This document shows positions 771-33,845 of a DNA stretch of 64,000 nt, one piece after another (positions within the stretch are counted from its first letter, which is position 1; each line of letters opens with the position of its first letter). Origin of the DNA: an uncultured Gemmatimonadales bacterium (GTDB lineage Bacteria; Gemmatimonadota; Gemmatimonadetes; Palauibacterales; Palauibacteraceae); the NCBI GenBank assembly GCA_963807645.1, contig CAWECO010000003.1, positions 38,005 through 102,004 on the forward strand, written 5' to 3'. The notes beneath the pieces were generated by a model. That model worked only from the letters and a program-made list of their open reading frames with translations, was not told the origin of the DNA and made no database searches. Position numbers and translations under genes: made by a program.

Positions 771-1895
771 ATGAAAAGGCCTTTGAGAGTCGCATTGCAG
801 GATATCGCCAGGCTGGCGCTCGCCGTTCCGTCTGCCCTGGTGGGGCTGGCGCTGGCTCTTCCGCTCCTGGCGCTTCTGGCGCCCTTCGCGGTCGTCAACG
901 GCCTGGTTCGCGCCGTGGCCCGCTTGCTGAGCCCGGCCACCGTCAGCTGGACCGAGCTGGTGGAATTCGACATGGAGCTGGGCTGGAAGACGCGGCCGAG
1001 TCTTGATACGCATGCCGTTGACCTGGCTGGCGACGCTTTCCACCTCGTAACCGACGAGAACGGGTGGGCGGGCCAGACGACGATCGACGAGAGCCAGATC
1101 GTGCTGTTCGGGGACTCCTTTGCGCTGGGTTTCGGTGTGGACGCGGAGGCCCTGTTCGCCAACGTGCCAGGCGACCCGGCGATCAAACCGATCGGCGCAC
1201 CGGCATACAGCATGGTCCAGCCCATCCTGATGATGGAGAGACTCGCAGAGCGCCTCGGCGGAAAGCTCGTCGTGCTTCTGGTCTATCTGGGTAATGACCT
1301 CGATGACAGCCTCCGTCCCAGCGCGGGCAAGTACCGGGCGCCCTTTGCCAGGCGTTCCGCCGTGGACGGGGATTGGCAGATCTGCGGGGAGCACGTGTCG
1401 CTCGAGCCCTGGACGGCCTCCGCGCCCGATCTCAGCTACGAGGCTTTCGTGGAGATCTGCAGCCCCTCCTATCGCAGCCAGCGCGTGTTCGAGGCATGCG
1501 AGTTCCTTATTGGCCGTGCCCGGGATATCTGTCGCGGCGCGGGGGCGGACCTCGCGGTCATGTCGGTTCCCGAGCTCTCTCCTGTCGTGCTCGAGAAGAT
1601 CGATAAGGTGCTCGCCGATCGCCCGCCGCCGGCAGGCTACGATCCCGGTCTTCCGGACAGGGAGATCGAGCGCATATGCGGGCAGGCGAGCGTGGCTTTC
1701 GTTCCTCTCAGCCGATATCTCACCTCGGCCGACTATCTGGAGCGTGACGTTCACTGGAACGAGAGCGGCCACCGAAAGGTGGCTGCCGTGTTGCGGGAGG
1801 TGGCTCGCGACGCTGCATCGACACCCATTCCAAAACCGGATGGACTACCGCTCGGCCCGGACGATGAGTTCGAAGCCGCCTGGCGGACCGGTTGA
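771..1895 (+). CDS. membrane-anchored SGNH/GDSL-family hydrolase (putative polysaccharide O-acyl esterase/acyltransferase)
   Basis: N-terminal TM helix, block I FGDSFALGFG and a C-terminal DVHWNESGHRKVA catalytic-type motif. The start is ambiguous: ATG 732 or ATG 771. 771 avoids overlap with the upstream ORF. Confidence 0.65.
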   Translation: MKRPLRVALQDIARLALAVPSALVGLALALPLLALLAPFAVVNGLVRAVARLLSPATVSWTELVEFDMELGWKTRPSLDTHAVDLAGDAFHLVTDENGWAGQTTIDESQIVLFGDSFALGFGVDAEALFANVPGDPAIKPIGAPAYSMVQPILMMERLAERLGGKLVVLLVYLGNDLDDSLRPSAGKYRAPFARRSAVDGDWQICGEHVSLEPWTASAPDLSYEAFVEICSPSYRSQRVFEACEFLIGRARDICRGAGADLAVMSVPELSPVVLEKIDKVLADRPPPAGYDPGLPDREIERICGQASVAFVPLSRYLTSADYLERDVHWNESGHRKVAAVLREVARDAASTPIPKPDGLPLGPDDEFEAAWRTG

Positions 1896-3217
1896 GGGGT
1901 GGAGAATCACCTGAGCGGGACCGCAGCGAGAAGCCAGTGAGAATCCTGCATTTGAGCAGTGACGATACTACGGGCGGCGCGGCACGATGCGCGTACCGGC
2001 TGCACCTGGGTTTACGGCGGCTGAGTCTCGACTCTCGAATGCTCGTGCGTCGTCGCCGCTCGGATGATCCGGAAGTACTCAAATTCCATCGGGAGGACGA
2101 TCCACTCAGCCGGGTCCGCCGTAGGTCACGCTCGCTGCGGATACGGAGAGACCGCGCTCGCTACAGGGCCACCATCGATCCGGATATCGAGGCATTCAGT
2201 GACGATCGGTCGCCCCTGGGTGGTGCCATCGCTGGGCAGCTGCAGGAAGCCGATATCATCCACCTTCACTGGATCTCAGGGTTCGTCGATTTGCAGCGCC
2301 TTCTCGCAGGGCTGCCATCTGCCGCCAGGGTTGTGTGGACGCTACACGACATGAACGCATTCACCGGCGGCTGCCACTACGCGGGAAGCTGTGATGGATT
2401 CGTCAATCAGTGCGGGGAATGTCCTCAACTCGGCTCGGCGGACGCGAGAGATCTGTCCCGCGGAATCTGGCAGAGGAAGGACAGGGCCTTCGGAAGCCTG
2501 ACACCAGACCGTCTTCAGATCGTGACCCCGAGTCGTTGGCTCGAGGGAGAGGTGAGACGCAGCTCGCTGTTGGGGCCGAGATTCGAGGTCCGGCGGATTC
2601 CTTATGGAGTGGACACAGACGAGCTGGCTCCGCGTGATAGGGCGGCGGCTCGCGCCACGCTCGGGGTGCCGGCAGAAAAGAAAGTGATTCTCTTTGCGGC
2701 ACACTCCATCGCCAACCGACGCAAGGGCTTCGATCTGCTCGCTCGAGCGCTCGCCGGCCTTGACGATCTCGACGATCTATTCCTGGTATCGCTTGGCGGT
2801 GGCCACCCCCCCGCGACGGGCGCGCTTCCCCACCGTCATCTCGGGTATGTCGGCGATGAAAGGCTGCTGTCGCTGGTGTACAGCGCTGCTGACGTCTTCG
2901 TCCTGCCATCCCGCCAGGACAATCTCCCGGCCACGGGTCTGGAAGCTCTGGCCTGTGGGACTCCGGTCGTCGGTTTCGCCGTCGGAGGGGTGCCCGACCT
3001 GGTACGACCTGGGGTTACAGGTGCACTCGCCGATGAGGTGGACGCAGGCGCGTTGGGTGCTACGCTGCGCGACATCCTGAGTCACGAAGACCGTCTCGCA
3101 GAACTTCGCCGCCGGTGTCGTGCGGTCGCATTGGACGAATACACCCTGGAGAGACAGGCGAGAGACTACAGAGCGCTCTACGAACGCTGCCATGAGAGCG
3201 TGCAGCCCGCTGGATAA
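1892..3217 (+). CDS. glycosyltransferase family 4 (GT-B, Glycos_transf_1)
   Basis: N-terminal ILHLSSDDTTGGAARCAYRL, Cys-rich TGGCHYAGSCDGFVNQCGECP insert and C-terminal EALACGTPVVGFAVGGVPDLV (E-x7-E region). The TTGA overlaps the upstream stop. GTG 1937 is an alternative start. Confidence 0.85.
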   Translation: MRGGESPERDRSEKPVRILHLSSDDTTGGAARCAYRLHLGLRRLSLDSRMLVRRRRSDDPEVLKFHREDDPLSRVRRRSRSLRIRRDRARYRATIDPDIEAFSDDRSPLGGAIAGQLQEADIIHLHWISGFVDLQRLLAGLPSAARVVWTLHDMNAFTGGCHYAGSCDGFVNQCGECPQLGSADARDLSRGIWQRKDRAFGSLTPDRLQIVTPSRWLEGEVRRSSLLGPRFEVRRIPYGVDTDELAPRDRAAARATLGVPAEKKVILFAAHSIANRRKGFDLLARALAGLDDLDDLFLVSLGGGHPPATGALPHRHLGYVGDERLLSLVYSAADVFVLPSRQDNLPATGLEALACGTPVVGFAVGGVPDLVRPGVTGALADEVDAGALGATLRDILSHEDRLAELRRRCRAVALDEYTLERQARDYRALYERCHESVQPAG

Positions 3218-3277
3218 GCTGATCGGAGGAAAGTCGCCCGTGGGAGACAAGGACATGAGCCAAGAACGGGAGAAGGT

Positions 3278-4270
3278 GTGAGGCCAACCGTCACGATCGC
3301 CATTCCCGTCTATAAACGCCTGAAATACCTGGAGACAGCCCTGGATTCAGTGGCGCGCCAGGATTATCCGGCGATCGACCTCCTGATCTCGGACAACGGG
3401 ATGCAGGGGAGTCGGCTGGAGGAACTCCTCGACCGGTGCCTGTCACGTCCGTATCGGCTGAGAGCCAATCCCCAAACGGTCAGCATCACCGACCACTATA
3501 ACCAGCTGGTTGACGCGGCCGAGGGCGACTATTTCGTTCTCCTGTGCGACGATGATGAGCTGGGGGGAACCCGATACATATCCACCCTCGTGGAAGTCCT
3601 TGATACGCAACCGGATGTCGGAGTCGCGCTGGGAAGGCTGGAGGTCATGGATGGCACCGGCGAGTACGTGCCGCGGCGCAACTCGGACAACCTACCGCCG
3701 AGCTTGGTGACGGGGCGCGAGTTCGTTCGAATGTGGTTCCGGAAGGAATACAATTTCGTGTGTTTCGTCACCAACGTGGCCAGAACCGACGAAATCCGTC
3801 GCGTCGGGGGATACCCGGTCTTTCCGAAGGGCACGGCGGTTGACAACGCGCTGCTGCTCAAGCTCATACTCGGTCGGAAGCTCGCCTTCGTTGCAGAAGC
3901 GGAGTTTCGGTATCGCCAGTACGAGGAAAGTCACGGGCTCGCCCTTTCGGATCGTGACTTGGCGCTCGACCTCAAGGCCTTCCTGCGTTTTGTGGACCGT
4001 GACCCGACCCTGCGCGCCTACGCAGCCTCTGATCCGGACGGCTGGAGGGAAGTGCGTGCCCAATTGGTCGAGGAGACGTGGCGCAGCTATCGCAGTCGCT
4101 GGAGAAACCTGTACCGGAGGCGGCTGGGGCCGGTTCAATGGCTGCGGGCCGCGGTTCGCATGCCATGGTTGCCTGCTTATTACAGCTCGGTTCTGAGCAC
4201 GGTGGTCCGGAGAGGAGTACGCGGAGTCAAGCACAAGCTTCGAGGAACGGGGGGGGGCGCTAGCACGTGA
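3278..4270 (+). CDS. glycosyltransferase family 2
   Basis: TVTIAIPVYKRLKYLETALDSVARQDYPAIDLLISDNG and LLCDDDE (DxD). A GGGAGAAGG Shine-Dalgarno sequence precedes the GTG start. Confidence 0.85.
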   Translation: MRPTVTIAIPVYKRLKYLETALDSVARQDYPAIDLLISDNGMQGSRLEELLDRCLSRPYRLRANPQTVSITDHYNQLVDAAEGDYFVLLCDDDELGGTRYISTLVEVLDTQPDVGVALGRLEVMDGTGEYVPRRNSDNLPPSLVTGREFVRMWFRKEYNFVCFVTNVARTDEIRRVGGYPVFPKGTAVDNALLLKLILGRKLAFVAEAEFRYRQYEESHGLALSDRDLALDLKAFLRFVDRDPTLRAYAASDPDGWREVRAQLVEETWRSYRSRWRNLYRRRLGPVQWLRAAVRMPWLPAYYSSVLSTVVRRGVRGVKHKLRGTGGGAST

Positions 4271-4333
4271 GGCCGATCCAAGCTGGCAGTGAAGAGACTG
4301 TCCTCGATCGTCAGGGAAAGGTCGGAGCCTGAC

Positions 4334-5599
4334 ATGACGCGCGTTGGCAGGCCTCGGCGAGTCCTGTTCGTTCAGCGAAGCGGCGGCGGCGGATCTTTGA
4401 TCAACGTGCTTCTGCTCGTGAAGCACCTCGATCACGATCAGTTCCAGCCGACCGTGCTGTTCTACAATTCGAATTCGTATGAGGAGGAGTTCAGAGCTGC
4501 CGGAGCCGAGGTCCGGGTGCTGGACAGCACCGTGCCGGTTCGATCGGTAGCGAACCTCATCCCACGCCATCTGCGGCCGGAGGGTGGAGAACGTCTTGGG
4601 CTCCGGCCGATGCGGCGGTTTAACGGTTTCGTCCAGCGCGACTTTCCGCTCGCTCGCCGAATCGCTGACGTGATCCTAGATGTGGGGGCCGACCTGGTAC
4701 AGAGTAACATTTGCCCGAGCGCGGATCGGGCCTCGATCCTGGCCGCCGGCCTGACACGGGTGAGACACGTCTCGTACTCGCAGTTCTTCACCGCCGACGA
4801 GGTGTGGCTCGACCGCCCGTTGTCAGCCTTCGTCGACCGCTACCTGTGCATTTCCGAGGCGGTCCGACAGCAGGTGCGGCGGGCGGCCGGAGTGCCGGAG
4901 GATAAGATGGGTGTTGTATATGCACCGTTCGAGTTCCCGACCCCGTCGATTACAGCCTCGGTAGCGGTGCGCGAAAGCCTGAGCCTGAACGGCCGGCACC
5001 GTTTGATCGTCAACGTTGGCCGGATCGTGCCGTGGAAGGGTCAGGACGTATTCCTGCGCGCCTTCGCCTCGGTGGCGTCCGCACATCCGGAAGCGCAGGC
5101 AGTCGTCGTGGGATCCGCAGGTGACAAGCGGGAAGGTCAGGCCTTCGAGCTTGAGTTGCGGAAGCTCGCGTCGGATCTCGATCTTTGCCAGCGAGTGACC
5201 TTCACCGGACACCGAGACGACGTCGAGGACATCATGTCCGCTGCCGAGGTCGTCGTCCACTCGTCGTCTGAGGCGGAGCCCTTGGGCCGGGTGATCATGG
5301 AAGCGATAGCTCTTCAGAAGCCCGTGATCGCCACCGGAGCCGGCGGGGTCCCCGAAATGGTTCAGGACGGGAAGACGGGCTCTCTGGTGCCTCCGGGAGA
5401 TGCGACGGCCATGGCCCGAGCCCTGGATAGAGTGCTTCGGGAGCCGGGCCGTGCTGCGCAGATGGCCACGAGGGCTCGCCGAGAGGCCGAGAGTCGTTTC
5501 GGTGCCGTGAGGTTCGTGCGGACTGTCGAGTCCGAGTATCGGAGAGTTCTTGGGTTGCGAGTAACTGCTACGCCTATCACGGATCGTCGGCGGGACTGA
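4334..5599 (+). CDS. glycosyltransferase family 4
   Basis: RVLFVQRSGGGGS N-terminus, VGRIVPWKGQDVFLRAF and EPLGRVIMEAIALQKPVIATGAGGVPEMVQDGKTGSLV. ATG 4334 has a GGAG 8 nt upstream. The ORF is open from GTG 4289. Confidence 0.85.
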   Translation: MTRVGRPRRVLFVQRSGGGGSLINVLLLVKHLDHDQFQPTVLFYNSNSYEEEFRAAGAEVRVLDSTVPVRSVANLIPRHLRPEGGERLGLRPMRRFNGFVQRDFPLARRIADVILDVGADLVQSNICPSADRASILAAGLTRVRHVSYSQFFTADEVWLDRPLSAFVDRYLCISEAVRQQVRRAAGVPEDKMGVVYAPFEFPTPSITASVAVRESLSLNGRHRLIVNVGRIVPWKGQDVFLRAFASVASAHPEAQAVVVGSAGDKREGQAFELELRKLASDLDLCQRVTFTGHRDDVEDIMSAAEVVVHSSSEAEPLGRVIMEAIALQKPVIATGAGGVPEMVQDGKTGSLVPPGDATAMARALDRVLREPGRAAQMATRARREAESRFGAVRFVRTVESEYRRVLGLRVTATPITDRRRD

Positions 5600-5820
5600 G
5601 CATGGATCTTGCGCCTCTCACTCTAGTTACGACAGGCGGTCTGGTACCGGTTCGGGCCTGCAGTACCTGCGCGAGGCGGGCCGGACCCGCGGCTGTCAGC
5701 ATACACAGATCGAGTACGGTGGCGCTGAGTGTCGGCGTCACATCACCGGTGGTCGAGAAGGCCCGCAGCCGGCTTCACGGCGGGCCAGCCGGGCATCCGA
5801 GTAGTCCAAAGGGGGATTCC

Positions 5821-6462
5821 ATGATCCGTTCCATCGTCCGCATCGGCCTGCTGGGCCTCGCTCTCGGGGTGGTCGCCCCTCCGGCGCCTGCACAGGACAC
5901 AGGGAGCTACGACTCGCCTCTAAGACCGGGGGATGCCCTGCGAGTCTCGGTATGGCCGGAGGCGGACCTGGGAGGCCAGTTTCCGGTCGAGGTAGACGGC
6001 AACGTGTATCTGCCTTTCCTGGGGGCAGTGCGGGTCACCGGCGTTCCGGGCGACGAATTGCGTCGAAACATTCGCGAGGGGTTTCAGGCGGCGCAGCGCA
6101 ACGCTGTGGTAACGGTCACTCCGCTGTACCGGATCGGAGTGACCGGATCCGTCAGGGCGCCGGGCGCCTACCTGGTCCCGCCCTCGGACGGCTTCTTCAA
6201 TGTAATCGCCACGGCAGGCGGTTTCGACATGCGGGCCAAGGAGGACCAGGTCTCCGTGGTGCGAGGCGGCCAGGTGATCAGGCTCAATGCGGAAGACGCC
6301 ATCAAAAGTGGGAATACCCTTCCCCTCGATGCCCTCAGCTTGCAGTCGGGCGACCAGATCATCGTGCCCTTCGGAGCCTTGCCGTGGACCTTCCGGGACT
6401 GGTTGGCGCTGGGAAACTTCGCCATGACTACGATCCTGTTCGTGGAACGGGTGAGGAACTGA
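5821..6462 (+). CDS. polysaccharide export protein (short Wza/GumB-like, Poly_export + SLBB)
   Basis: Signal peptide MIRSIVRIGLLGLALGVVAPPAPAQ. PGDALRVSVWPEADLGGQFPVEVDGNVYLPFLGAVRVTGV is the typical Poly_export motif, and SGDQIIVP is SLBB-like. The ORF-track start at 5602 adds 73 non-homologous residues. Confidence 0.8.
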   Translation: MIRSIVRIGLLGLALGVVAPPAPAQDTGSYDSPLRPGDALRVSVWPEADLGGQFPVEVDGNVYLPFLGAVRVTGVPGDELRRNIREGFQAAQRNAVVTVTPLYRIGVTGSVRAPGAYLVPPSDGFFNVIATAGGFDMRAKEDQVSVVRGGQVIRLNAEDAIKSGNTLPLDALSLQSGDQIIVPFGALPWTFRDWLALGNFAMTTILFVERVRN

Positions 6463-6519
6463 TCGTTGGTACCGCGCGAGGCCCAAGCCTGACATTCGTC
6501 GTCTCGCGGTAGGCAGGGT

Positions 6520-7665
6520 ATGACCAGGGTGCTTGGTCCGACTGTCTCTGACGGGTCCCGGCGCCGAATCCTGTTCGTCACTCACACGAGCGAGTGGATC
6601 GGTCCCAACGTCAGCCTCGTCCAACTGGTCACACGAGCCCCAAGCTGGATGGAACCGATCGTTCTGCTTCCGTGCGACGGAGCTCTCTCGACCGAGTTGG
6701 ATCGGCACCAGGTGGCCTTTCGGCGGATCGGAAAGCTGGACAAGTACGCCATCCCTCGCATCGCCAGGATCATCCGACGCGATAACATTGACCTTGTCTA
6801 CGGAAACAGTGCGCACGGCGCCTCGAGAAACGCCCTGATCGCGGCGAAAATATGTGGCCGGCCGTTCGTGTATCATCTTCGCGAGATGTGCGGGCAGGTC
6901 AGAATGCGATCCGTCGCCTTTCTGCGAATCGCCGATGCCGTCGTAGCGGTGTCGCGAGCCACAGCAGACTCGTACAGCCAGTTCCTTCAGAAGCCTGCTG
7001 TGGTCGTCTACAATGGAGTGCCCGAAGAGCATTTCACCCCTTCTCTGCCAGAAACCCGCGAACGGTTGCGAGGGGAGTTTGAGATTCCAACCGAGGCATG
7101 CGTAGTGCTGCACGTTGGAAACGTGTATCGCCGCAAGGCTCAGGAGGTAGCGGTCAGAGCATTCCAAAACCTGAAGAAGAATCACGCGGATGTCAGGCTT
7201 TTTCTAGTGGGCCGCCTGGATCGTGATCCTAAATACGTCGGGCAACTCGAGGATCTGATCAACGAGGTAGACGAGTCACGACACATTCATCTCACGGGCT
7301 TCAGAGCGGACGTGCGCGACTTCCTGGCGGCCTCCGACGTATTTCTTCACACCGCGAAGGAGGACCCGCACCCGCGAGCGGTGATCGAGGCCATGGCCGC
7401 CGGTCTGCCGATCGTCGCGGTGGCTGTCGACGGCGTTAAGGAGACCATTGTGGACGGCGAGTGCGGGTACCTGGTTAAGCCGCCGGGGGATCCGAATGTC
7501 CTCGCGGACAGGCTGGACCACGTCCTCCGGGATCCGGAACTCGGGAAGAACATGGGTGCGAATGGCCAGGAACGAGCTTTGCGGCTCTTCTCCGCCGAAC
7601 GTCCGGCTCGCGAAGTCAGTGGACTTATAGAGAAAGTCTTGCGGAAGTCAGGGCGCTGGTTATGA
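6520..7665 (+). CDS. glycosyltransferase family 4
   Basis: ILFVTHTSEWIGPN, VLHVGNVYRRKAQEVAVRAF and HPRAVIEAMAAGLPIVAVAVDGVKETIVDGECGYLV. Confidence 0.85.
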   Translation: MTRVLGPTVSDGSRRRILFVTHTSEWIGPNVSLVQLVTRAPSWMEPIVLLPCDGALSTELDRHQVAFRRIGKLDKYAIPRIARIIRRDNIDLVYGNSAHGASRNALIAAKICGRPFVYHLREMCGQVRMRSVAFLRIADAVVAVSRATADSYSQFLQKPAVVVYNGVPEEHFTPSLPETRERLRGEFEIPTEACVVLHVGNVYRRKAQEVAVRAFQNLKKNHADVRLFLVGRLDRDPKYVGQLEDLINEVDESRHIHLTGFRADVRDFLAASDVFLHTAKEDPHPRAVIEAMAAGLPIVAVAVDGVKETIVDGECGYLVKPPGDPNVLADRLDHVLRDPELGKNMGANGQERALRLFSAERPAREVSGLIEKVLRKSGRWL

Positions 7666-25033: not shown

Positions 25034-25679
25034 GGACCAGCCCAGGCTGATTGCTGTGACGAGTGCCACTCCCAGGGACGGGAAGAGCACCGTCGCGACG
25101 AACCTGGCTCTTACCCTGGCGGACCAGGGAAGTCGGGTCCTTGTCGTTGACGCAGACTTGAGGAGACCCCAGGTCCATACCGCCTTTGGCCTGGAACAGT
25201 CTCCTGGCATATCCGACGTCCTGACCGGTGTCGCCTCAATCGATGAGGCCATTCAAGGACTGTCGGGTAGCCCGACGCTGTCCCTGCTGGCATGCGGGAC
25301 GGCAGTCGAGCGACCGACCGAATTGATCGGCAACGAGGGCTTCGAGGCACTCATGACCGAGCTGAGGACGCGCTTCGACTACATAGTGGTGGACACTCCG
25401 CCTCTCTTGGCCGTCACTGACGCGGCTCTGGTAGGAGCGGTTGCGGATGGAACGCTTGTCGTCGTTCGTGCCAACAAGACGGACCTGGGGGCGCTAAGCA
25501 CGGCTGTGAGCCAGCTACGGCGTCTACGCGTCCCGCTCCTGGGCGTGGTCATGAATGGAGTCCCGACCGGAAGGTCGTCAGGCTACTCGTACACTCCTGA
25601 ATACTATCCGAGCTACGCTGGGGAAGCAGGTGCGTCTCCGGAGGTCGAGCGAAAGCGTCCGCTTCTGAAGTCCGGCTGA
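24987..25679 (+). CDS. BY-kinase (CpsD/Wzc-type protein-tyrosine kinase) domain
   Basis: Walker A IAVTSATPRDGKSTVATNLA, A-prime VLVVDADLRRP, Walker B YIVVDTPPLLAVTDA and a Tyr-rich tail GYSYTPEYYPSYAG. It overlaps the co-polymerase ORF in the +1 frame. The join around 25005-25015 reads ..FRALRTH|LRFALLKDQPRLIAVTS. Confidence 0.8.
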   Translation: MLSERYARTLRFALLKDQPRLIAVTSATPRDGKSTVATNLALTLADQGSRVLVVDADLRRPQVHTAFGLEQSPGISDVLTGVASIDEAIQGLSGSPTLSLLACGTAVERPTELIGNEGFEALMTELRTRFDYIVVDTPPLLAVTDAALVGAVADGTLVVVRANKTDLGALSTAVSQLRRLRVPLLGVVMNGVPTGRSSGYSYTPEYYPSYAGEAGASPEVERKRPLLKSG

Positions 25680-25765: not shown

Positions 25766-27601
25766 ATGCACACACTCTCATATTTTCTGGCGGCTATTCG
25801 CCCGGTCGGCGACTATGCGACTGACCTTGCGACAGATTCAGTATTCTGCGGGAGACCCCCTGGCGACATAGTCTTCTCGGTCGTGTGCGGGGATTTCGAA
25901 ATCTGCTTGCTGACCTCTCGGACTACCGGAGTCGTGTCGAGTGATGTCGACGGCGGCGTGATTCTCGTGCTTCACGGCGAGCTGTACTCCGGCTCCGGAC
26001 CGACATCGGCGGAAGGATGCCTCGAAGCCTATATGCAGCGGGGGTTGAGCTTCCTGCCTGACCTGCACGGTTCGTTCGCATTGACCGTCATCGACGGAAG
26101 GCAGGGGCGGGTATTCCTCGCAACGGATCTGCTGAACAGCAGGAAGCTGTTCTTCGGCAAGCACCGGGGCCTGGCGTGGATATCCACGATGCACGCGTTT
26201 CATCTTCACCCTTGCTCGGGAAGGCCGGACCCGGCTGGTGTGGCGCACTGTCTCGTGAACGGAATACCGCTCAACGGTCTGACGCCCTTCGAGGGAGTAC
26301 GCGTGCTGGAGCGGGCGTCGATTCACGAGATTCGGGGACTCGACATGAAGTCGGAGTCCTACTGGCAGTATTCGCCGCGACCCCGGACGGATCGGTTGGA
26401 AGGAGCCTTCAAGAAGGATGTGCAAGACACTCTTGTCGCAGCGATTGGGCGACGAGTGTCGCAGGACGAACCGGCGGTCCTGTCGCTCAGCGGAGGCTAC
26501 GATTCAACGGCCGTTCTGGGCACCCTTCGCCACCTCCAGGTGACGGACGTTCGGTGCATTACGTACAAGATACCCGGGGAAGGAGATCTCGGCGATGCGG
26601 GCGTTGCGGGGAAGATGGCGACCATCGCCGGCTATCCTCACACGGAGATCGAAGCGTACAGGGATGATGTCGCCGCCGTCATTGCCGAGAACGTCCGTTG
26701 GGGAAACGGGCTCACTCGCCTCGTGGTGGAGACAGATGCCTGGAGGTCTTTGAGAGAGTGCTTGCCAAGCGATCGTCGAACCACGTTCTGGGTGGCGGAC
26801 GAGTGCTTCGGAATGGTTCCTTCCCACACACTTCTCGACGACGCGGACGTGCTGAACAGTCTGGCGTTCGCTGACTGGAGCAGTCTCGGGCCGCTGACGG
26901 CCCTGTTTCCTCGGACCGTGACGTCGTTGCTCGGGGGTGCGTTGCGCGCAGACCTGGATTCAATGCTCGAGCGCAACCGGGCGATCCAGGACCCGTACGT
27001 CCTCCGCGAATGCCTATACCTCGAACAGCGGCTTCCGCGCATTCTCTCGTGGCGCGAGGCTTATGCGGGATCGTGCGGTGAGGTGAGAATCCCGCTGATT
27101 GACAGAGAGGTCCTGGAACTCAGACAGCAGCTCCCGCAGCACATGAAACTGGAAAGGCGACTGTACAAAGAGACGGTGACGGAGTTGTTCCCGGACCTGT
27201 TTGCGATTGGCCGTGCCGTTGGGCCCGGGTGGTTCGCTGGCAACTGGTGCCGGGAAGCGGTACGGACACAATCTGACCGACTGGCGCGGATGGTCAGAGC
27301 GAACGCGAGCCCGCTTGACGAGTACCTGCCGCCCGAAATGCTTCTCCGCGTGATAGGTCAGGAAGCCCGGCGCGCAGCCGCGATACGAAGGCTGGCCTGG
27401 AGGGCGCGCAGAGGGCTGCGGAACCGGCTACCGTTGATCGGCAGGCCTGGCGTGGAAAACGGACGGCCACGCAGACCAACCGTGGATTCGGCAGTGTTCC
27501 TCCTGCGAGCGATCACTCTCAGGGAGGTGTTCCGCAGCCGCGCCAAGAACGCCGCGGCTCGAGGGGCTCAGGCAGAGAGGATTGGTCCGAGACTTGCATG
27601 A
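25766..27601 (+). CDS. asparagine-synthase-family protein with shortened/degenerate glutaminase domain
   Basis: PP-loop LSLSGGYDSTAVLG, and HGELYSG..LHGSFALTVIDGRQGRVFLATDLLNSRKLFF matches the distal half of the Ntn domain. HRGPD and RLSIxD are absent. ATG 25766 gives no Cys2. An internal GTG at 25883 would give MCGDFE... Confidence 0.75.
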   Translation: MHTLSYFLAAIRPVGDYATDLATDSVFCGRPPGDIVFSVVCGDFEICLLTSRTTGVVSSDVDGGVILVLHGELYSGSGPTSAEGCLEAYMQRGLSFLPDLHGSFALTVIDGRQGRVFLATDLLNSRKLFFGKHRGLAWISTMHAFHLHPCSGRPDPAGVAHCLVNGIPLNGLTPFEGVRVLERASIHEIRGLDMKSESYWQYSPRPRTDRLEGAFKKDVQDTLVAAIGRRVSQDEPAVLSLSGGYDSTAVLGTLRHLQVTDVRCITYKIPGEGDLGDAGVAGKMATIAGYPHTEIEAYRDDVAAVIAENVRWGNGLTRLVVETDAWRSLRECLPSDRRTTFWVADECFGMVPSHTLLDDADVLNSLAFADWSSLGPLTALFPRTVTSLLGGALRADLDSMLERNRAIQDPYVLRECLYLEQRLPRILSWREAYAGSCGEVRIPLIDREVLELRQQLPQHMKLERRLYKETVTELFPDLFAIGRAVGPGWFAGNWCREAVRTQSDRLARMVRANASPLDEYLPPEMLLRVIGQEARRAAAIRRLAWRARRGLRNRLPLIGRPGVENGRPRRPTVDSAVFLLRAITLREVFRSRAKNAAARGAQAERIGPRLA

Positions 27602-27702: not shown

Positions 27703-29676
27703 GTGGGTGAATTGAAGAGCGGAAGGCGATGGTTGGCGGCGGGCGGGCTGGTCATGGTTCTGGCCTTTACCTCTGCATGTGGCGACGACAATGGAACATC
27801 ACCGCCTCCGCCCCCGGACACATACAGCGTCGGGGGGTCGGTCTCGGGACTCACGGGTGGCGGCTTTACCCTCCAGTTGAACGGTGGAGCGGATCTGTCC
27901 GTCACGGCCGATGGGAGTTTCCAGTTCGCCACAGAACTGTCGGATGGATCCAACTATCTGGTGACCGTCTCCACGCAGCCAGCCGGTCACACGTGCACGG
28001 TGTCCAACGGCAACGGTACGATCGATGGGGCCAATGTCACCAATGTGTCCGTGACCTGCTCGGTCGAAACGTACTCTGTGGGTGGAGTCGTTGCAGGCCT
28101 CACGGGGGGCACGCTCGTTCTCCAGAACAACGGTGGGGACGACCTGTCCGTCACGGCTGACGGCAACTTTACGTTCGGCACGGAGCTGGCCAGCGGTTCG
28201 AGCTACCTTGTGAGCATCGCGGCGCAGCCCGCGGGACAGACGTGCTCGATGTCGAACGGAAGCGGCACGATTGCCAGCGTCGACGTGACGGATGTCGCCG
28301 TGAGCTGCAGCGCCAATACGTATACGGTGGGCGGCTCCCTGGCAGGCCTGACAGAAGGCACGGTCGTTCTGCAGAACAATGGCGGGGACGACCTGTCGCT
28401 CACCGCGGATGGAGGCTTCGAGTTCGTTACGGCTCTGACCGACGGTTCCAACTACCTCGTGACCGTGTCGGCGCAACCCGCGGGACTCACGTGCGCGGTG
28501 GCGAACGAGAGCGGTGCGATCAGCGGTGCGAACGTGACCGACATTGCGGTGACCTGCACCCTGAACACGTACACCGTCGGCGGTACGCTAAGTGGCCTCA
28601 GCGGCGGCACGGTGGTCCTCCAGAACAACGACGGCGACGACCTGTCGTTGTCGGCCAACGGTAGCTTCACCTTCGCCACAGCAGTCCCTCAAGGTGGCGC
28701 CTACAGCGTCACGGTCGCCGGTCAGCCCGTAGCCCAGACGTGTGTGGTGTCGAACGGAGCCGGGACGATCAACGCGGCCGACGTGACGAATGTGACCGTC
28801 AGCTGCACCCAGGTAGCTCCTCTCGTGAACAAGATCGTATTCCACAGCGAGCGCGACGGCGACTTCGAGATCTTCGCGATGGATCCGGACGGGACCAACG
28901 TCGTCCAGTTGACCAACAACAACCTCGACGACCTGTGGCCGGCGGTCTCTCCGGACGGGAGGTCAATCGCGTTCTTCACGAACCGGGACGGCAACCAGGA
29001 TATCTGGGTGATGAACGCGGACGGTTCCGGAGCGAGGCAGGTGACGAGTAGCTTGCGCTCCGATCGGCAGCCGGCGTGGTCGCCCGATGGCAGCCGCATC
29101 GCCTTCCACAGAGTCGTGAATGGCTTCAAGGAGATCTATACCGTTCGGCTCGATGGGACGGACGAGCGTCGTCTCACGGACAACGACTTCAACGACGCGG
29201 AACCGGCCTGGTCACCGGACGGCCTGACGATGGCGTTCACTTCGGACCGAGATGGAAGCGCCGAGATCTATACGATGAGCGCCCTGGACGGTGAGACCGT
29301 CGGCCTCGCGAACCTGACCAACAATCCTGGGCGGGACAGTCATCCCGACTGGTCTCCGGATGGCACCAGGCTCATGTTTGACAGAAACAACGAGGACGTA
29401 GATGGCACCTGGCTCGGTGGTGCAGAGATCATGTGCATGGCGTCGGACGGGACAGGTGTGGTCCAAATGACCGCGGACGCGACGGGAATCACAGAGTTCC
29501 AGCCTCGCTGGTCCCCCAATGGCGCGCGTGTGGTGTTTGTCAGCGACCAGGATGGACTCCTGGTGAACAACGAGCTTTATGTCGCTGACACGAACGCGTG
29601 TGCCGCTCCGCTAAGCGGTGTGAGTCGAGTGACGATCTCCGCAGGTAAGGATGAGGCAGGCGCCTGGTCGCCGTGA
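27703..29676 (+). CDS. surface lipoprotein: 4 tandem 83-aa beta-sandwich-like repeats + TolB-like (PD40/WD40-like) beta-propeller
   Basis: Signal/lipobox LVMVLAFTSAC, then a PPPPP linker. Four copies of TY[ST]VGG..GLTGG..VLQNNGGDDLS.TADG.F.F...L..GS.YLVT...QPAG.TC.VSNG.GTI....VT.V.V.C. Then repeated PD40 units (FHSERDGDFEIFAMDPDGTNVVQLT, PAVSPDGRSIAFFTNRDGNQDIWVMNADGSG, PAWSPDGSRIAF ..). Confidence 0.8.
   Translation: MGELKSGRRWLAAGGLVMVLAFTSACGDDNGTSPPPPPDTYSVGGSVSGLTGGGFTLQLNGGADLSVTADGSFQFATELSDGSNYLVTVSTQPAGHTCTVSNGNGTIDGANVTNVSVTCSVETYSVGGVVAGLTGGTLVLQNNGGDDLSVTADGNFTFGTELASGSSYLVSIAAQPAGQTCSMSNGSGTIASVDVTDVAVSCSANTYTVGGSLAGLTEGTVVLQNNGGDDLSLTADGGFEFVTALTDGSNYLVTVSAQPAGLTCAVANESGAISGANVTDIAVTCTLNTYTVGGTLSGLSGGTVVLQNNDGDDLSLSANGSFTFATAVPQGGAYSVTVAGQPVAQTCVVSNGAGTINAADVTNVTVSCTQVAPLVNKIVFHSERDGDFEIFAMDPDGTNVVQLTNNNLDDLWPAVSPDGRSIAFFTNRDGNQDIWVMNADGSGARQVTSSLRSDRQPAWSPDGSRIAFHRVVNGFKEIYTVRLDGTDERRLTDNDFNDAEPAWSPDGLTMAFTSDRDGSAEIYTMSALDGETVGLANLTNNPGRDSHPDWSPDGTRLMFDRNNEDVDGTWLGGAEIMCMASDGTGVVQMTADATGITEFQPRWSPNGARVVFVSDQDGLLVNNELYVADTNACAAPLSGVSRVTISAGKDEAGAWSP
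27820..28815 (+). repeat. 4 x 249-bp in-frame tandem repeat inside the lipoprotein gene
   Basis: Repeat units start at 27820, 28069, 28318 and 28567, each at the ACG TAC codons of TY[ST]VGG. The period is exactly 249 nt. Copies are diverged (roughly half to two-thirds of residues shared). Confidence 0.85.
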
Positions 29677-29860
29677 GGTTCGCTGGAGTGTGTGAATATG
29701 AGGCAGGGGCCGTTCTCGGCCCCTGCCTCGCCGTTTGTACCATGGTCACCGCTTGCACGTCGGCCACCGCCGCGAGGACCGCGGATGAGTGCCAGCTTCT
29801 TCGGTCCTGGTCCCGGAGCCCGACACGCCGGGACGGTCTGATGAACGACGGAGAGGGCCC

Positions 29861-31489
29861 TTGAGCGACGAAGCACGACGTACCCCAGAAGACCGTGAGT
29901 GGGTGCTCGTCAGGAGAATCTGGTGGATCGGCGGCCTGCTGCTGATTCTCGCCTGGACCAGCTATGTCTTGTTCGTTCCAGCGCTGATTCGTTCGGCCTA
30001 TCTGGGCCAGAGTCTGCCGGTACTCAACCGGATGATCACCGGACAAGAGATACACTCGGTCGAGTTCTATCTGGCGCGGTGGGGTGTAGTTGGAGCCAAC
30101 GTGGCGAGCTATCTGACCGTGTTGCTGGTTCTCACGACGCCGCTGCTGTTCGTATCGCCGCGGTCTGCGGGAAGGGTCAGACTCGGCGGAGGCTCGCTCT
30201 CGACTCATTCATCGACCGCATGGAGCTGGGCCATCGTTGGTCTTCCCGTGCTGCTCACTCTCTATTTGTTCTACATGCAGCCTGTCGCATTTGTCCTCTT
30301 CGTGCACGAGGACTATTGGGCCGAGTGGGCGACCTCGTTCTTCTTCTCCGCCGCGTTTCTGTATCTGCTCTTCGCCATGGTCATCGATCCGACACGCAGG
30401 AAGTGGGGGTACGCTCTACTTGCGCTTGCCGCCTTCTTCGTGGCCGGGGAGGAATTCAGCTGGGGGCAGCGAATGCTGGGAGTCGGATCGACCCGGTTCT
30501 TCGCGGAGAACAACGTCCAGCGAGAAATGAACCTGCACAATCTGGCGCCCAATCCATCTTCAGGGCTGATTGCGGTGGCGATCTTGGTCTGGGTTGTCGG
30601 CATTGGGTGGGCCGCGAAGCGAGCGCCCTATGTATCACGCTGGGTCGAACGCATCGGCATTCCCCTGCCGCCACGCCGTCTCCGTCCTCTGTTCTACGCC
30701 TGCGCGGCGGTGCTATTCCTGTCCCACTTCCCCAACCTCGTGCCGAAGATCACTGAAATCGGAGAGCTTCTGTTCGGGTGTGCGGTGGCGGCCCTGTCGC
30801 TTCACATCGCGCTCGAGAGCGCGGCAAGAGGCACTCCGAAGAGGGCGCTGACCATTGTGTCCACGGGAACCCTGGTTACCGTGGTCGGGATTTCGACTGT
30901 GGCCTTTGTGAGCATCGCGGGCGCCAGGGACGCGGGCCCGTACTTGCACGCCTACGCGATTGATCGATACCCGGAGAGGCGGTTGTACGCCCAGGCCGGA
31001 GAGATCTTCCGCTACCTGGAGGGTCACGAAGATCTGCTGGCTGACACGACGCTGATTGAGGCAGCGCGGGTGTTGAAGGCAAGCGGTGACGAGGATGGAG
31101 CAGCGACCATGATGGAGTTGGCGCTCGAGCGCGCCCTCGAAGCCCGGGAGGCGGATGCCGAGGCTCCCGAACCGGCGCGGGTCGTCATGGTAGCCCACAT
31201 GCTCATGGAGCATGAGGAGGAGGCGGAGGTTGCCAGAGCAGTTGCTCTCGGGAGAGACTCTCTTCGACTTCGCTCGGCGCTGACCGGCCGTGAGAGAGCC
31301 GATGTTCATTGGTCGATGGCCATCACCCGCCTCAAGGCGGGGCAGGTGCAGGCAGCGCTCCGGGAGGTCGAGAAAGCCTGTTCACTCGCGTCCGGGGGGA
31401 CGGCAATGAGGATCGACAGGTGGACCACACTGCACCTGGGCGACGCCGCGCCGAACGGATGTCGGGGATCATTGCCATCCGGGGACTAA
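29861..31489 (+). CDS. hypothetical polytopic membrane protein with helical-repeat (TPR-like) C-terminal domain
   Basis: About 9 TM helices, a conserved-looking FVAGEEFSWGQRMLG loop and an Ala/Glu/Leu-rich C-terminal third. GGAGAGGG precedes TTG 29861. The ORF is open from 29789. No family assigned. Confidence 0.55.
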   Translation: MSDEARRTPEDREWVLVRRIWWIGGLLLILAWTSYVLFVPALIRSAYLGQSLPVLNRMITGQEIHSVEFYLARWGVVGANVASYLTVLLVLTTPLLFVSPRSAGRVRLGGGSLSTHSSTAWSWAIVGLPVLLTLYLFYMQPVAFVLFVHEDYWAEWATSFFFSAAFLYLLFAMVIDPTRRKWGYALLALAAFFVAGEEFSWGQRMLGVGSTRFFAENNVQREMNLHNLAPNPSSGLIAVAILVWVVGIGWAAKRAPYVSRWVERIGIPLPPRRLRPLFYACAAVLFLSHFPNLVPKITEIGELLFGCAVAALSLHIALESAARGTPKRALTIVSTGTLVTVVGISTVAFVSIAGARDAGPYLHAYAIDRYPERRLYAQAGEIFRYLEGHEDLLADTTLIEAARVLKASGDEDGAATMMELALERALEAREADAEAPEPARVVMVAHMLMEHEEEAEVARAVALGRDSLRLRSALTGRERADVHWSMAITRLKAGQVQAALREVEKACSLASGGTAMRIDRWTTLHLGDAAPNGCRGSLPSGD

Positions 31490-31514: not shown

Positions 31515-32117
31515 GTGCAGAAAACGCAGTATACGGGGTCCGAGTCCGGGGTGGAACGGCTGAAACTGCCCAGACCGACGCTGGTCCTCTTGGCGGGAGT
31601 CGCCGGCTCGGGAAAATCGAGCGTCGCCCGCGGGCTCCTGGAACATCTGCAGGCAGTCTACCTGGACAACAACTTCATTGCCGACGCTTTCTTTCCAGAT
31701 ACCCGCCGGGGCGTCGACTACCGACAATTTAGGCCGCGCTTGTACAGGGCACTGTATAGGATTGCCGGCGAGAATCTCAATGTGGGCAACAGCGTGCTCC
31801 TGGACGCTCCCCACATCCGCCAGAGTCGGAGCGCTCTCTGGTACCGTTCGATGCTGTTGCGCACCAAGGAAGCCGCTGCAGATCTCGTCATGATCAGGTG
31901 TGTGGCGTCGGAGGGAGAAATCAGGCGGCGCCTGGAGTCCCGCGGAGAGGCAAGAGATCGCTGGAAGCTGCAGAACTGGGATGCTCACGTTCACTCGCAG
32001 CCGATCAGGGGGACGCTTCCGCATCCCCACCTGGATCTACCGACGGAGCGACCTATTGAGGAGACCGTACAGGAGGCTCTCAGCTACATTCTGGCCAGAG
32101 CGGCCACGGTCAATTAG
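31515..32117 (+). CDS. P-loop NTPase / small-molecule-kinase-like protein (AAA_33-like)
   Basis: Walker A LLAGVAGSGKSSVARGL followed by VYLDNNF.. and VLLDAPH, about 200 aa. It converges on and overlaps by 4 nt the stop of the priming transferase gene. Confidence 0.6.
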   Translation: MQKTQYTGSESGVERLKLPRPTLVLLAGVAGSGKSSVARGLLEHLQAVYLDNNFIADAFFPDTRRGVDYRQFRPRLYRALYRIAGENLNVGNSVLLDAPHIRQSRSALWYRSMLLRTKEAAADLVMIRCVASEGEIRRRLESRGEARDRWKLQNWDAHVHSQPIRGTLPHPHLDLPTERPIEETVQEALSYILARAATVN

Positions 32118-32914
32118 CGAGCACCTCTGCACCTGAGGACGACCGGAACGGTCCGGGCAAGGACGGCCACGTCCAACCAGAAGGAACGCCGCGCAATATA
32201 CTCGAGGTCGCGCTCCAGTTTGCGCTCGACCTCCGCCAACGTTCCACCATAGCCGCATGTGATCTGAGCAAGCCCAGTAATCCCGGGCCGCATCCTCTGT
32301 CGCTCGGGGAATTCCTCGAGCTGCTCTCTGAGGCGGGCCAAAATGTCAGGCTGCTCCGGCCGTGGGCCTACGATGTTCATGTCGCCCGTGATCACGTTGA
32401 ACAGCTGGGGTGTCTCGTCCAAACGGTGGGCTCGAAGCACTCGGCCCAACGGGGTGATTCGGCAGTCATTCTGCCGTGTCCACACCTGATGCGAAGGTGG
32501 GCCCGCTTCCCGGGACATCGTCCTGAACTTATAGATCGTGAACGGCCGGCCGCCGAGATCCCGCCGACGTCGGTCTCCGATCGTCGATCTGCCGCTATCG
32601 CGTCGGTCGAGGCCAATCCTCCGCTGCGTGTAAAGTACGGGGCCGCGTGAGCTCAACTTCACGGCCAGCGCAACTAGAATCATCAACGGTGCAGCGACCG
32701 CCAGGGCCAAAGCGGCGGCGATCACATTGCCCGCACGGGATGATCCCCGGGGAGTCTGCTTTGTTGCGGTTCGCCCCTCTTCCACCAGGGGATTGGCGAT
32801 CGGTTGCCGGCGGGTCGCTGAGCTCGAATGGTGGTTGCGGCGATGTCGAATCCGCGGTGAAGGCTCAATCGCCCCGCGTCCCGCATCTGCTTCTTGAAGC
32901 TGTGACACCTGCAC
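32114..32914 (-). CDS. undecaprenyl-phosphate sugar-1-phosphate transferase (Bac_transf family, priming enzyme)
   Basis: One TM helix (AAALALAVAAPLMILVALAV), then SSRGPVLYTQRRIGL, RPFTIYKFRTM, DETPQLFNVITGDMNIVGPRP and MRPGITGLAQI. Confidence 0.85.
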   Translation of the reverse strand: MQVSQLQEADAGRGAIEPSPRIRHRRNHHSSSATRRQPIANPLVEEGRTATKQTPRGSSRAGNVIAAALALAVAAPLMILVALAVKLSSRGPVLYTQRRIGLDRRDSGRSTIGDRRRRDLGGRPFTIYKFRTMSREAGPPSHQVWTRQNDCRITPLGRVLRAHRLDETPQLFNVITGDMNIVGPRPEQPDILARLREQLEEFPERQRMRPGITGLAQITCGYGGTLAEVERKLERDLEYIARRSFWLDVAVLARTVPVVLRCRGAR

Positions 32915-33107
32915 TCAAACCTCCAGTACAGTCTACGGCCGGGGGGCGGTGCCGAGACACCGCTGGAGAAAAGGCACGAGGACCCATTCGGCCAGCACAT
33001 GGATCTCGCAGCCCTCCCGCCCTCTACAATCTACACTACCGTCTCTCTGATCGCACAGCTCTCCACGCTCCGCCGGCGGGCTCCGTGCACCTGTCAGTTG
33101 GCAAGCA

Positions 33108-33845
33108 CTACGCATCGGGTGCTTCGAGCCTCTCTCGGCAGTAGTCGTAGATCAGATAGTCCACGTGGTTCTGGATCCTGAACTCACGGATGAACTCGCG
33201 GTCGAGCTCTACCCTGTCTCTCGCTGTTCTCGACCTGTTGGCGCGGGGAAGCCGTATCCTGGGACGACCCACCAGGTTCGCCAGCCTGTCAAACGATTCC
33301 TGCATCCGCTCGGTAACACCTATGAAGAAATAGCGCGACAGGACGCGATCAACATCCTCCGCTGCACACGGAAACCGATTCGCCATGAAGTTCGGCCTCG
33401 TGAGCAGTTCATCCTCGATCGACTGCGTTCCAAAATCCTTGCCCTTCCTCTTCTCCCAGAAATAGAGCGACAACTTGATTTCCAGCGGGTCACGAACAAA
33501 TGTGAACAATCGATATTTCCGCTCGGTCAGGATCTCGGGATATCGCTCGTGTAAGTACTCTCCCGGAACGGCCCAATGTCCGGCCAGGCAGTCGTTGGCA
33601 CGAATACGCGACAGATCCAGGGGTGGACCGGCGACGTGTCCGGCTGTCCAGTCGTTCGGGTCCACTCGAACCCGACCATCGTGGATTCGATAGAACCAGC
33701 AGGGGAGTACCCTGTTCACAGACGAACCACCGGTCTTCGGAATGTGGTGGAAGACATAGACGGGTGCCGTTCCGACGGGTGTAAGATGGTGTCGAACTGT
33801 ACGATACAGTCTTCGAAGACGTAGCACAGGCGGCGAATGGTTCAA
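33108..33845 (-). CDS. sulfotransferase (Sulfotransfer_2-like)
   Basis: 5-prime-PSB loop VFHHIPKTGGSSVNRVL and 3-prime-PB-like RLFTFVRDPLEIKLSLYFW. 245 aa, no TM segment. Confidence 0.7.
   Translation of the reverse strand: MNHSPPVLRLRRLYRTVRHHLTPVGTAPVYVFHHIPKTGGSSVNRVLPCWFYRIHDGRVRVDPNDWTAGHVAGPPLDLSRIRANDCLAGHWAVPGEYLHERYPEILTERKYRLFTFVRDPLEIKLSLYFWEKRKGKDFGTQSIEDELLTRPNFMANRFPCAAEDVDRVLSRYFFIGVTERMQESFDRLANLVGRPRIRLPRANRSRTARDRVELDREFIREFRIQNHVDYLIYDYCRERLEAPDA

Follow-up and report, generated by a model that had tools for sequence, protein, structure and literature searches.

Introduction

Wzy-dependent loci of the group 1 type, such as those for colanic acid, xanthan (GumB/GumC) and the Eps polymers of Methylobacillus and Myxococcus, are the described systems closest to the gene block analysed here. 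The block lies at positions 732-33845 of a 64-kb stretch of DNA (hereafter the window) from an uncultured Gemmatimonadota-like bacterium, and a listing of open reading frames (ORFs) together with Pfam and NCBIfam scans presents it as a contiguous polysaccharide locus. Like the group 1-type loci, it contains a priming Bac_transf enzyme, multiple glycosyltransferases of families GT4 and GT2, a Wzy_C protein, a Wzc resembling the polysaccharide co-polymerases of class 2a (PCP-2a) with a tyrosine-rich tail, and an exporter with Poly_export and SLBB domains. Unlike them, it is accompanied by no Wzx in 64 kb, its exporter is short, and it has extra genes for a PD40 lipoprotein, a membrane protein with tetratricopeptide repeats (TPR) and an AAA_33 kinase. 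Gemmatimonadota are abundant in soils and sediments and are poorly cultured. A literature search on the phylum in combination with sulfotransferases and exopolysaccharide (EPS) found no study of its polysaccharide chemistry.

The EPS loci of the XrtA/PEP-CTERM type offer a second comparison. Most core genes of the window have their best or near-best NCBIfam match among the models of this system (those compared were TIGR03108, TIGR03007, TIGR03018, TIGR03027, TIGR03013, TIGR03088 and TIGR03097). However, every one of these matches stays under its family cutoff, with scores against cutoffs of 594/817 for TIGR03108, 93/279 for TIGR03007, 131/231 for TIGR03018, 53/180 for TIGR03027, 199/393 for TIGR03013 and 71/188 for TIGR03097. 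No exosortase XrtA or PEP-CTERM protein was found among the window proteins scanned with Pfam and NCBIfam.

The Vibrio polysaccharide (VPS) of Vibrio cholerae is a parallel for the predicted chemistry, and its production is a classic trait controlled by c-di-GMP (cyclic diguanosine monophosphate). VPS contains an amide-modified uronic-type sugar, with a glycine amide on a modified L-gulose unit, and its cluster encodes RbmB, a beta-elimination lyase cleaving the cell's own polymer (PMC12993940, PMC11637428). The window resembles this system in its predicted amide-modified uronic polymer, its putative cluster-encoded lyase and its predicted link to c-di-GMP. It differs in that its candidates for amide formation are of the AsnB and TupA types, in that a sulfotransferase is present, and in that the c-di-GMP input would arrive through a riboswitch on the lyase messenger RNA.

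Precedents also exist for the single tailoring steps. The eps_aminotran_1 family includes WbpS of Pseudomonas aeruginosa and WbqG of Escherichia coli O121, which are genetically tied to uronamide formation, and the Porphyromonas gingivalis homologue PGN_1234 is required for the conversion of a uronic acid to a uronamide (PMC7468200). Sulfotransferase-bearing polysaccharide clusters are known for synechan (xss, Synechocystis; PMC8205485), for the capsular polysaccharides (CPS) of Vibrio sp. KMM 8419 (PMC11641403) and Cobetia marina (PMC11766843), and for the EPS of Pontiella (PMC7356697). The last three make outdated the statement, in an earlier note on this stretch of DNA, that sulfation of bacterial EPS is rare outside cyanobacteria and rhizobia. 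The present locus shares with these clusters a sulfotransferase gene embedded in an assembly locus, while it differs in its Gemmatimonadota-like phylum, in being known from genes alone, and in a Sulfotransfer_2 subfamily seen in metagenomes only. Lastly, GEMM-I (c-di-GMP-I) riboswitches precede genes of secreted or surface proteins; the window likewise has a full-length aptamer in a 5' leader, whereas the gene downstream of it encodes an Ig-like, pectate-lyase-like protein within an EPS locus.

The block is, in our judgement, likely to be a functional Wzy-dependent locus of the Wza/Wzc type, with an acidic heteropolysaccharide as its product. That the polymer contains uronic acids and is both amidated and sulfated is a reasonable prediction, although unproven. 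Every element of the locus has precedent, and overall the locus is fairly ordinary. Noteworthy are its phylum, the way in which tailoring genes are combined, the pairing of a riboswitch with a lyase, and an uncharacterised family of membrane/TPR proteins.

The Assembly and Export Core

The earlier note described one block holding a Wzy-pathway core and a tailoring set, and scanning the block proteins against Pfam and NCBIfam recovers the families of both. The core genes are these:

32114-32914, minus strand: priming enzyme, a small polyprenyl-phosphate sugar-phosphate transferase (Bac_transf, 185 bits; EPS_sugtrans, 239 bits, below the cutoff of 295)
1892-3217, plus strand: GT4 glycosyltransferase (Glycos_transf_1, 77.8 bits)
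3278-4270, plus strand: GT2 glycosyltransferase (Glycos_transf_2, 54.5 bits)
4289-5599, plus strand: GT4 glycosyltransferase (Glycos_transf_1, 131.5 bits)
6520-7665, plus strand: GT4 glycosyltransferase (Glycos_transf_1, 125 bits)
7662-8942, plus strand: GT4 glycosyltransferase (Glycos_transf_1, 100 bits)
8939-10177, plus strand: GT4 glycosyltransferase (Glycos_transf_1, 138 bits)
14839-16008, minus strand: GT4 glycosyltransferase (Glycos_transf_1, 105.6 bits)
21427-22383, plus strand: GT2 glycosyltransferase (Glycos_transf_2, 88.1 bits)
10232-11734, plus strand: Wzy_C membrane protein, candidate polymerase (Wzy_C, 65 bits; 12-13 hydrophobic/transmembrane segments)
23441-25679, plus strand: Wzc, a chain-length protein with a bacterial tyrosine kinase, or BY-kinase (GNVR/Wzz in 23441-25033; kinase in 24921-25679)
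5602-6462, plus strand: short Wza/GumB-like outer-membrane export protein (Poly_export, 52.3 bits, and SLBB)

This core gene set supports the assignment to the Wzy-dependent, Wza/Wzc-type class. The proposed pair of Wzz/GumC and BY-kinase and the Wza/GumB-like exporter are confirmed by the GNVR/Wzz, Poly_export and SLBB matches and by TIGR01007, against which the kinase (24921-25679) scores 150.9 bits, above the cutoff of 108. The glycosyltransferases number eight by Pfam (six GT4 and two GT2) and not nine, as had been counted. The exporter resembles pepcterm_export and EpsY, with scores under both NCBIfam cutoffs; a signal-peptide-like stretch starts at Met74, which places the probable start near 5821 and gives a mature protein of ~213 amino acids. 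The Wzy_C protein also matches PEP_O_lig_1 at 70.8 bits, below the cutoff of 188. The absence of a visible Wzx was noted correctly: hidden Markov model (HMM) scans gave no Polysacc_synt or MATE-like match, and a six-frame hydrophobicity scan of the 64-kb window gave no further ORF with 12 transmembrane segments.

The Tailoring Genes

Beside the core, the block encodes enzymes suited to modifying a glycan, among them a sulfotransferase dependent on 3'-phosphoadenosine-5'-phosphosulfate (PAPS):

33108-33845, minus strand: PAPS-dependent sulfotransferase of the Sulfotransfer_2 family (PF03567, 25.8 bits; gathering cutoff 22)
12803-14788, plus strand: AsnB1, a glutamine-dependent, WbpS-like amidotransferase of the AsnB family (Asn_synthase, 404 bits, and GATase_7)
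25766-27601, plus strand: AsnB2, an AsnB-like adenylating enzyme (Asn_synthase, 57 bits, N-terminal part only)
11731-12641, plus strand: TupA-like ATP-grasp ligase (PF14305), with a full-length domain only after a two-base repair
732-1895, plus strand: membrane-anchored SGNH/GDSL-like protein, candidate O-acyl esterase/transferase (N-terminal transmembrane segments; motifs GDSF, GNDL and DVHWNESGH)

The sulfotransferase contains the 5'-phosphosulfate-binding (5'-PSB) loop HIPKTGGSS and the 3'-phosphate-binding (3'-PB) motif RDPLEIKLSLY, as judged by the patterns PKxGG[ST] and RxP...S.Y, respectively. It has 85 homologues, all derived from metagenomes or metagenome-assembled genomes (MAGs), and an alignment of 55 sequences shows no variation at H34, G40, R118, P120 and S126 and almost none at K37. 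The AlphaFold2 model has a mean predicted local distance difference test score (pLDDT) of 94.6. When this model was compared with the PDB by Foldseek, the top 48 matches were PAPS/PAP-binding proteins of the sulfotransferase fold, all of them sulfotransferases except five entries of retinol dehydratase, and the best matches were heparan sulfate 2-O, 6-O and 3-O sulfotransferases (probability 1.0, TM ~0.5). The sulfotransferase call therefore holds on both counts, since the PAPS motifs are conserved across the family and the modelled fold is that of PAPS sulfotransferases; neither HMM nor structure searches point to an unrelated function.

The earlier claim of two AsnB-family amidotransferases stands for one of the pair. 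AsnB1 begins with MCG, providing the Cys2 nucleophile, and has the PP-loop SGGIDSS. Its best NCBIfam match is eps_aminotran_1 (TIGR03108), at 594.3 bits and so under the family cutoff of 816.9; against the generic asparagine synthase model TIGR01536 it scores 500 bits, above the cutoff of 267. Cys2, the PP-loop and the best-matching family are features that it has in common with WbpS, WbqG and PGN_1234 (PMC7468200). It differs from them in scoring below the family cutoff and in that its activity is predicted, while AsnB2 belongs to a separate, Cys-less subfamily. The suggested WbpS-type role in uronamide formation accordingly finds support in the best match and is weakened by the score. In the family alignment of AsnB2 there is no N-terminal Cys, and the PP-loop SLSGGYDS is invariant. 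Because the nucleophile of the glutaminase is missing, AsnB2 is not a glutamine amidotransferase; its sequence fits best with an enzyme that activates carboxylates at the expense of ATP. Its family is small, with ~25 close relatives among 5.8 billion clusters, and the closest solved structures are the hydroxyamidotransferase 7ylz, AsnB and beta-lactam synthetase.

The SGNH-like protein has no significant Pfam or NCBIfam match, the weak ones being ALGX (E 0.06) and Lipase_GDSL_2 (E 0.11). It aligns over blocks I-III with a GDSL protein of the related locus L055 (E 4e-6). The motifs and this weak similarity speak for the acyl-esterase/transferase role that had been assigned to it, but all HMM matches are sub-threshold.

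The Putative Lyase and Its Riboswitch

Between AsnB1 and the chain-length gene lie a putative lyase and a regulatory RNA:

17496-19589, plus strand: secreted protein with Ig-like domains (Big_1/Big_2), a pectate-lyase-like beta-helix and C-terminal TSP3 calcium-binding repeats (Big_2, Big_1 and TSP3_bac matches)
17146-17240, plus strand: c-di-GMP-I riboswitch aptamer (RF01051) in the lyase gene's leader (67.4 bits; gathering cutoff 35; E 4.8e-11)

For the start, position 17496 follows the gene predicted on an independent contig, L001; the full ORF runs from 17124 to 19589. Residues 372-616 of this ORF match the solved pectate lyase 9buj_A over 245 residues (E 1.8e-10), and the motifs AGQTAPG, VLDHIS, HHNLF..HRNP (HRNPRV) and VYNW are kept in the homologue of the related locus L004. 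No Pfam lyase model matches the protein, even at E up to 10. The dedicated lyase of the earlier note is thus real as a lyase-like protein, by its similarity to 9buj_A, though Pfam lyase models do not detect it. The PD40/TolB-like protein at 27703-29676, which has a weak Pectate_lyase22 match, was also considered as a lyase and rejected; it is a TolB-like propeller, and the lyase homology resides in 17496-19589 instead. A beta-elimination lyase requires a uronic acid at its cleavage site, and the predicted lyase in the locus therefore suggests uronic acid in the polymer. It is the best internal argument for an acidic product.

The riboswitch covers the full Rfam model (positions 1-87/87). Two homologous lyase genes are preceded by the same element, namely the Ig-like/lyase gene of the related locus L005 (3887-3982, minus strand, 46.2 bits) and a 27%-identical lyase homologue on the metagenome contig L084 (514-604, plus strand, 68.6 bits). 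No RF01051 was found at 19 other lyase-homologue loci scanned, many of which have short upstream flanks. An alignment-based scan returned lyase homologues on metagenome contigs; a single-protein scan of such contigs with the lyase gave none. A look at the expression platform brought up no canonical terminator, and the minimum-free-energy fold was uninformative. A literature search on c-di-GMP riboswitches and polysaccharide lyases found no description of such a pairing.

Relatives and a Variable Island

Scanning species-representative genomes with an alignment of the AsnB2 family revealed the closest loci; a single-protein scan of genome contigs with AsnB2 gave no match. These closest loci are L005, from an uncultured Gemmatimonadota bacterium, and L004, from a MAG, while more distant ones occur in other Gemmatimonadota MAGs and in Deinococcus. 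Compared with L005, the genes of the flank are 83-94% identical (short-chain dehydrogenase/reductase, SDR; inosine monophosphate dehydrogenase, IMPDH; LysM-SLT; a sulfotransferase-like gene; and a dehydrogenase), with the universal stress protein (Usp) at 70%, whereas the shared genes of the locus are just 27-61% identical. The segment from the PD40 protein through the membrane/TPR and AAA_33 proteins to the priming enzyme is 68-75% identical in L055 and missing from L004 and L005. Between the priming enzyme and Usp lies a slot with the following content:

Window: sulfotransferase
L004: sulfotransferase, NTP_transferase and PIG-L
L005: NTP_transferase and PIG-L
L055: GDSL-type protein

Since the flank is conserved while the locus genes diverge and the content of the slot differs among relatives, the locus behaves as a variable island does in serotype loci, at one fixed position of the chromosome beside the conserved SDR-Usp...IMPDH flank. 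Sulfotransferases recur in related loci, as L004 has two: besides its Sulfotransfer_2 gene, it carries a Sulfotransfer_3 gene (4610-5668, plus strand, 53.8 bits) that lies immediately upstream of the AsnB2 homologue. No tRNA was found at the island border or elsewhere in the window, and positions 1-731, at its left edge, showed no clear gene.

The conserved flank contributes two genes that bear on the predicted chemistry:

40150-41052, minus strand: second sulfotransferase-like gene, outside the block (Sulfotransfer_3-like, 23 bits, below the cutoff of 27)
41042-42400, minus strand: nucleotide-sugar 6-dehydrogenase, uronic-acid forming (UDPG_MGDP_dh, central and C-terminal domains; split over three frames in the window)

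The former has the motifs GQGRSGSS and VREDLFRKALS and is 89% identical in L005. In the related assembly L002 (GCA_964602635.1), the same slot beside the dehydrogenase holds a 68%-identical homologue of the sulfotransferase at 33108-33845. The intact dehydrogenase orthologue of L002 scores 433.7 bits against TIGR03026 (cutoff 189.8), and its nearest relatives are UDP-ManNAc and UDP-GlcNAc dehydrogenases. No uronic-acid dehydrogenase was found inside the block, the nearest being this one, ~7 kb away.

Gene Order and the Module beside the Priming Enzyme

From 732 to 14788 all genes are on the plus strand, in the order SGNH-like, GT4, GT2, GT4, Poly_export/SLBB, three GT4, Wzy_C, TupA-like ATP-grasp and the full-length AsnB. 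AsnB1 is followed by a GT4 gene on the minus strand, a non-coding stretch, the Ig-like/beta-helix protein, an IS3-family insertion sequence (IS), a GT2 gene and ~1 kb without a convincing ORF. Toward the right end come Wzz/GNVR with the BY-kinase, AsnB2, the PD40 propeller, the membrane/TPR protein and AAA_33, and then Bac_transf and Sulfotransfer_2 on the minus strand. Two stretches inside the locus, 22384-23440 and 16009-17145, each of ~1 kb, have a weak coding signal and no convincing ORF. The former sits upstream of Wzc, for whose N-terminal FDLWHYFG segment there is no canonical in-frame start codon. The remaining features of the block are these:

~19650-21270, minus strand: IS3-family element with broken frames (rve and HTH_Tnp_1; transpos_IS3, 108 and 39 bits, below 160)
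27703-29676, plus strand: lipoprotein-like protein with four ~85-amino-acid tandem repeats and a TolB-like PD40 beta-propeller (PD40, 160 bits; propeller_TolB, 177 bits, below 343)
29789-31489, plus strand: polytopic membrane protein of 566 amino acids with C-terminal TPR (no Pfam or NCBIfam match)
31515-32117, plus strand: AAA_33 P-loop kinase-like protein (AAA_33, 59 bits; 75% identical in L055)

No clear terminal inverted repeats of the IS3 element were found, and its boundaries are approximate. In the PD40 protein, the near-identical repeats (TY[ST]VGG...) stand ahead of the propeller, and the protein is 75% identical to its L055 counterpart. The AAA_33 protein was considered as an adenosine 5'-phosphosulfate (APS) kinase and rejected, as it has no APS_kinase match and no informative solved relative.

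The membrane/TPR protein is not an orphan, since an exhaustive search returned 2849 relatives as against one homologue by a word-indexed search. Among 40 aligned members of the family, only the C-terminal part matches Pfam, by TPR models alone. The family has the invariant motifs E..EEISWGQR and N.Q.E..LHN. The AlphaFold2 model (pLDDT 88) finds matches in the PDB by Foldseek for the TPR part only and none for the membrane domain. With no HMM match and no fold match beyond the TPR part, its assignment as Wzx, Wzy, an exosortase or a GT-C enzyme was rejected. Glycan loci of the Wzy type and of the Wzm/Wzt type both contain members of the family, among them a distant one in a Wzm/Wzt locus (L057-L059), and the further contexts are mostly short contigs. 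One may speculate that the PD40, membrane/TPR and AAA_33 proteins form an undescribed component of polysaccharide assembly, in which the membrane/TPR protein would be either a new translocase of lipid-linked glycans, in place of the Wzx that is missing, or a membrane-bound enzyme of a new kind that modifies glycans, but we regard this as unlikely.

Broken Reading Frames

The TupA-like gene had been described as decayed, and the Wzz and kinase parts of Wzc also fall in different frames. Frameshifts were mapped by tblastn with orthologues from L002, as a plot of GC content at third codon positions (GC3) by frame was too noisy. The L002 orthologues align in several frames of the window: there are 4 pieces for IMPDH, 3 for the nucleotide-sugar dehydrogenase and 2 for each of MoaC, the M23 peptidase, the SLT protein and SurA. 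These frame-broken genes lie within 37150-50100, and the breaks fall at G-runs and short dinucleotide repeats.

TupA is split by two single-base indels, at ~12292 and ~12453. The truncated ORF covers positions 1-135/241 of the Pfam profile (105 bits), and removal of C12292 and G12453 extends the coverage to 1-228/241 (160 bits). Over window positions 12327-18530, identity to the independent contig L001 (from run ERR12040029) is 99.9%, and the sole indel between the two is the extra G at 12453, which is the second TupA frameshift. In Wzc, the Wzz frame stops in the canonical AFRALRTHL and the kinase homology resumes at once in the next frame. Deletion of A25016 yields a fused Wzc of 745 amino acids that has a Walker A motif and ends in a Tyr-rich tail, and the two parts of Wzc probably belong to a single fused gene that one surplus base at ~25016 interrupts. 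Because essential genes of the window are frameshifted likewise and L001 is without one of the TupA frameshifts, the "decay" of TupA and the split of Wzz and kinase are most likely assembly artefacts. In the preferred reading the broken frames of the dehydrogenase likewise go back to errors of assembly. The window is rich in single-base indel errors, so that calls of pseudogenes or decay in it are unsafe.

Weighing the Alternatives

Several observations weigh against a working locus for an acidic, amidated and sulfated polymer. The window has no Wzx, and the Wzy_C domain is common to polymerases and O-antigen ligases of the WaaL type. AsnB1 is under the TIGR03108 cutoff yet over that of generic asparagine synthase. 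No PAPS-synthesis genes were found in the 64-kb window, the dehydrogenase lies outside the block in the conserved flank and may serve another glycan, and the IS3 element sits inside the locus, between the lyase and GT2 genes. If that element, with its broken frames at ~19650-21270, is taken together with the two frameshifts in TupA, the one at the Wzz/kinase junction and the two in the dehydrogenase as real pseudogenisation, the island would be non-functional and decaying and would make no polymer. We hold this to be very improbable, since IMPDH, SurA, MoaC and the M23 peptidase are broken in the same manner at G-runs and dinucleotide repeats and the independent contig is free of one TupA frameshift. 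Moreover, none of the genes for the eight glycosyltransferases, AsnB1, AsnB2, Wzy, the exporter or the sulfotransferase is broken, and the element stands between genes, not visibly inside one.

The shared Wzy_C domain, the PEP_O_lig_1 match, and the lack of a Wzx and of a second candidate polymerase in the window would also suit a glycan of the O-antigen, or one for protein or lipid glycosylation, with the Wzy_C protein acting as ligase, in place of a free EPS or capsule. Against this, the Wzc BY-kinase and the Wza-like exporter are hallmarks of group 1-like capsule and EPS export and a dedicated secreted lyase suits a released polymer, which leaves this explanation quite improbable. A polymer might also be made while the sulfotransferase, the AsnB-like enzymes or both act on a lipid, small molecule, peptide or other glycan, so that the product is neither sulfated nor amidated. 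The sulfotransferase is indeed at the edge of the island, in the slot that varies between relatives, and its 68% homologue in L002 adjoins the dehydrogenase with no polysaccharide-assembly genes in the 14 kb of contig read; AsnB1 passes the generic asparagine synthase cutoff, and the closest solved relatives of AsnB2 include a hydroxyamidotransferase and beta-lactam synthetase. Nevertheless, the sulfotransferase gene is co-oriented with that of the priming transferase and lies 194 bp upstream of it, its structural neighbours are carbohydrate sulfotransferases, the homologous L004 locus holds two sulfotransferases with one directly upstream of AsnB2, and AsnB1 is embedded among glycosyltransferases. 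We therefore judge such other substrates to be rather unlikely, if worth keeping in mind.

A Proposed Pathway

For the preferred reading, that of a working Wzy-dependent locus with an acidic product, the following order of steps may be proposed. The gene families, their motifs and folds and the riboswitch are established by the analysis, whereas substrates, sequence of steps and chemistry of the polymer are predicted from them. The small Bac_transf enzyme would prime undecaprenyl phosphate, on which the eight glycosyltransferases would build a large or branched repeat unit with N-acetyl-hexosaminuronic or hexuronic acid, the uronic sugar being supplied by the nearby nucleotide-sugar dehydrogenase. 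AsnB1, the Cys-less AsnB2 and the TupA-like ATP-grasp enzyme would then turn some of the uronic carboxyls into amides. The PAPS-dependent sulfotransferase, acting in the cytoplasm, would O-sulfate a sugar or the lipid-linked unit, and the SGNH-like protein may add or remove acyl groups. A flippase encoded elsewhere would translocate the unit across the membrane, after which the Wzy_C protein would polymerise it, Wzc would set the chain length and the short Wza-like protein would export the polymer. Finally, the secreted Ig-like/beta-helix lyase would trim or release the polymer by beta-elimination, and the riboswitch in its leader would tie polymer turnover to the level of c-di-GMP.

Significance

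Sulfated bacterial polymers are of biotechnological interest as mimics of glycosaminoglycans. If the prediction is true, the locus would make a chemically rich surface polymer, with uronic acids, amides and sulfate, from Gemmatimonadota. Three groups known from metagenomes only, namely the subfamilies of the sulfotransferase and of the Cys-less AsnB and the family of the membrane/TPR protein, represent defined targets for enzymology. The pairing of riboswitch and lyase offers a connection of c-di-GMP to the degradation of the matrix that can be tested directly and, if true, riboswitch control of a lyase for the cell's own polymer would be a new route by which c-di-GMP acts on matrix turnover.

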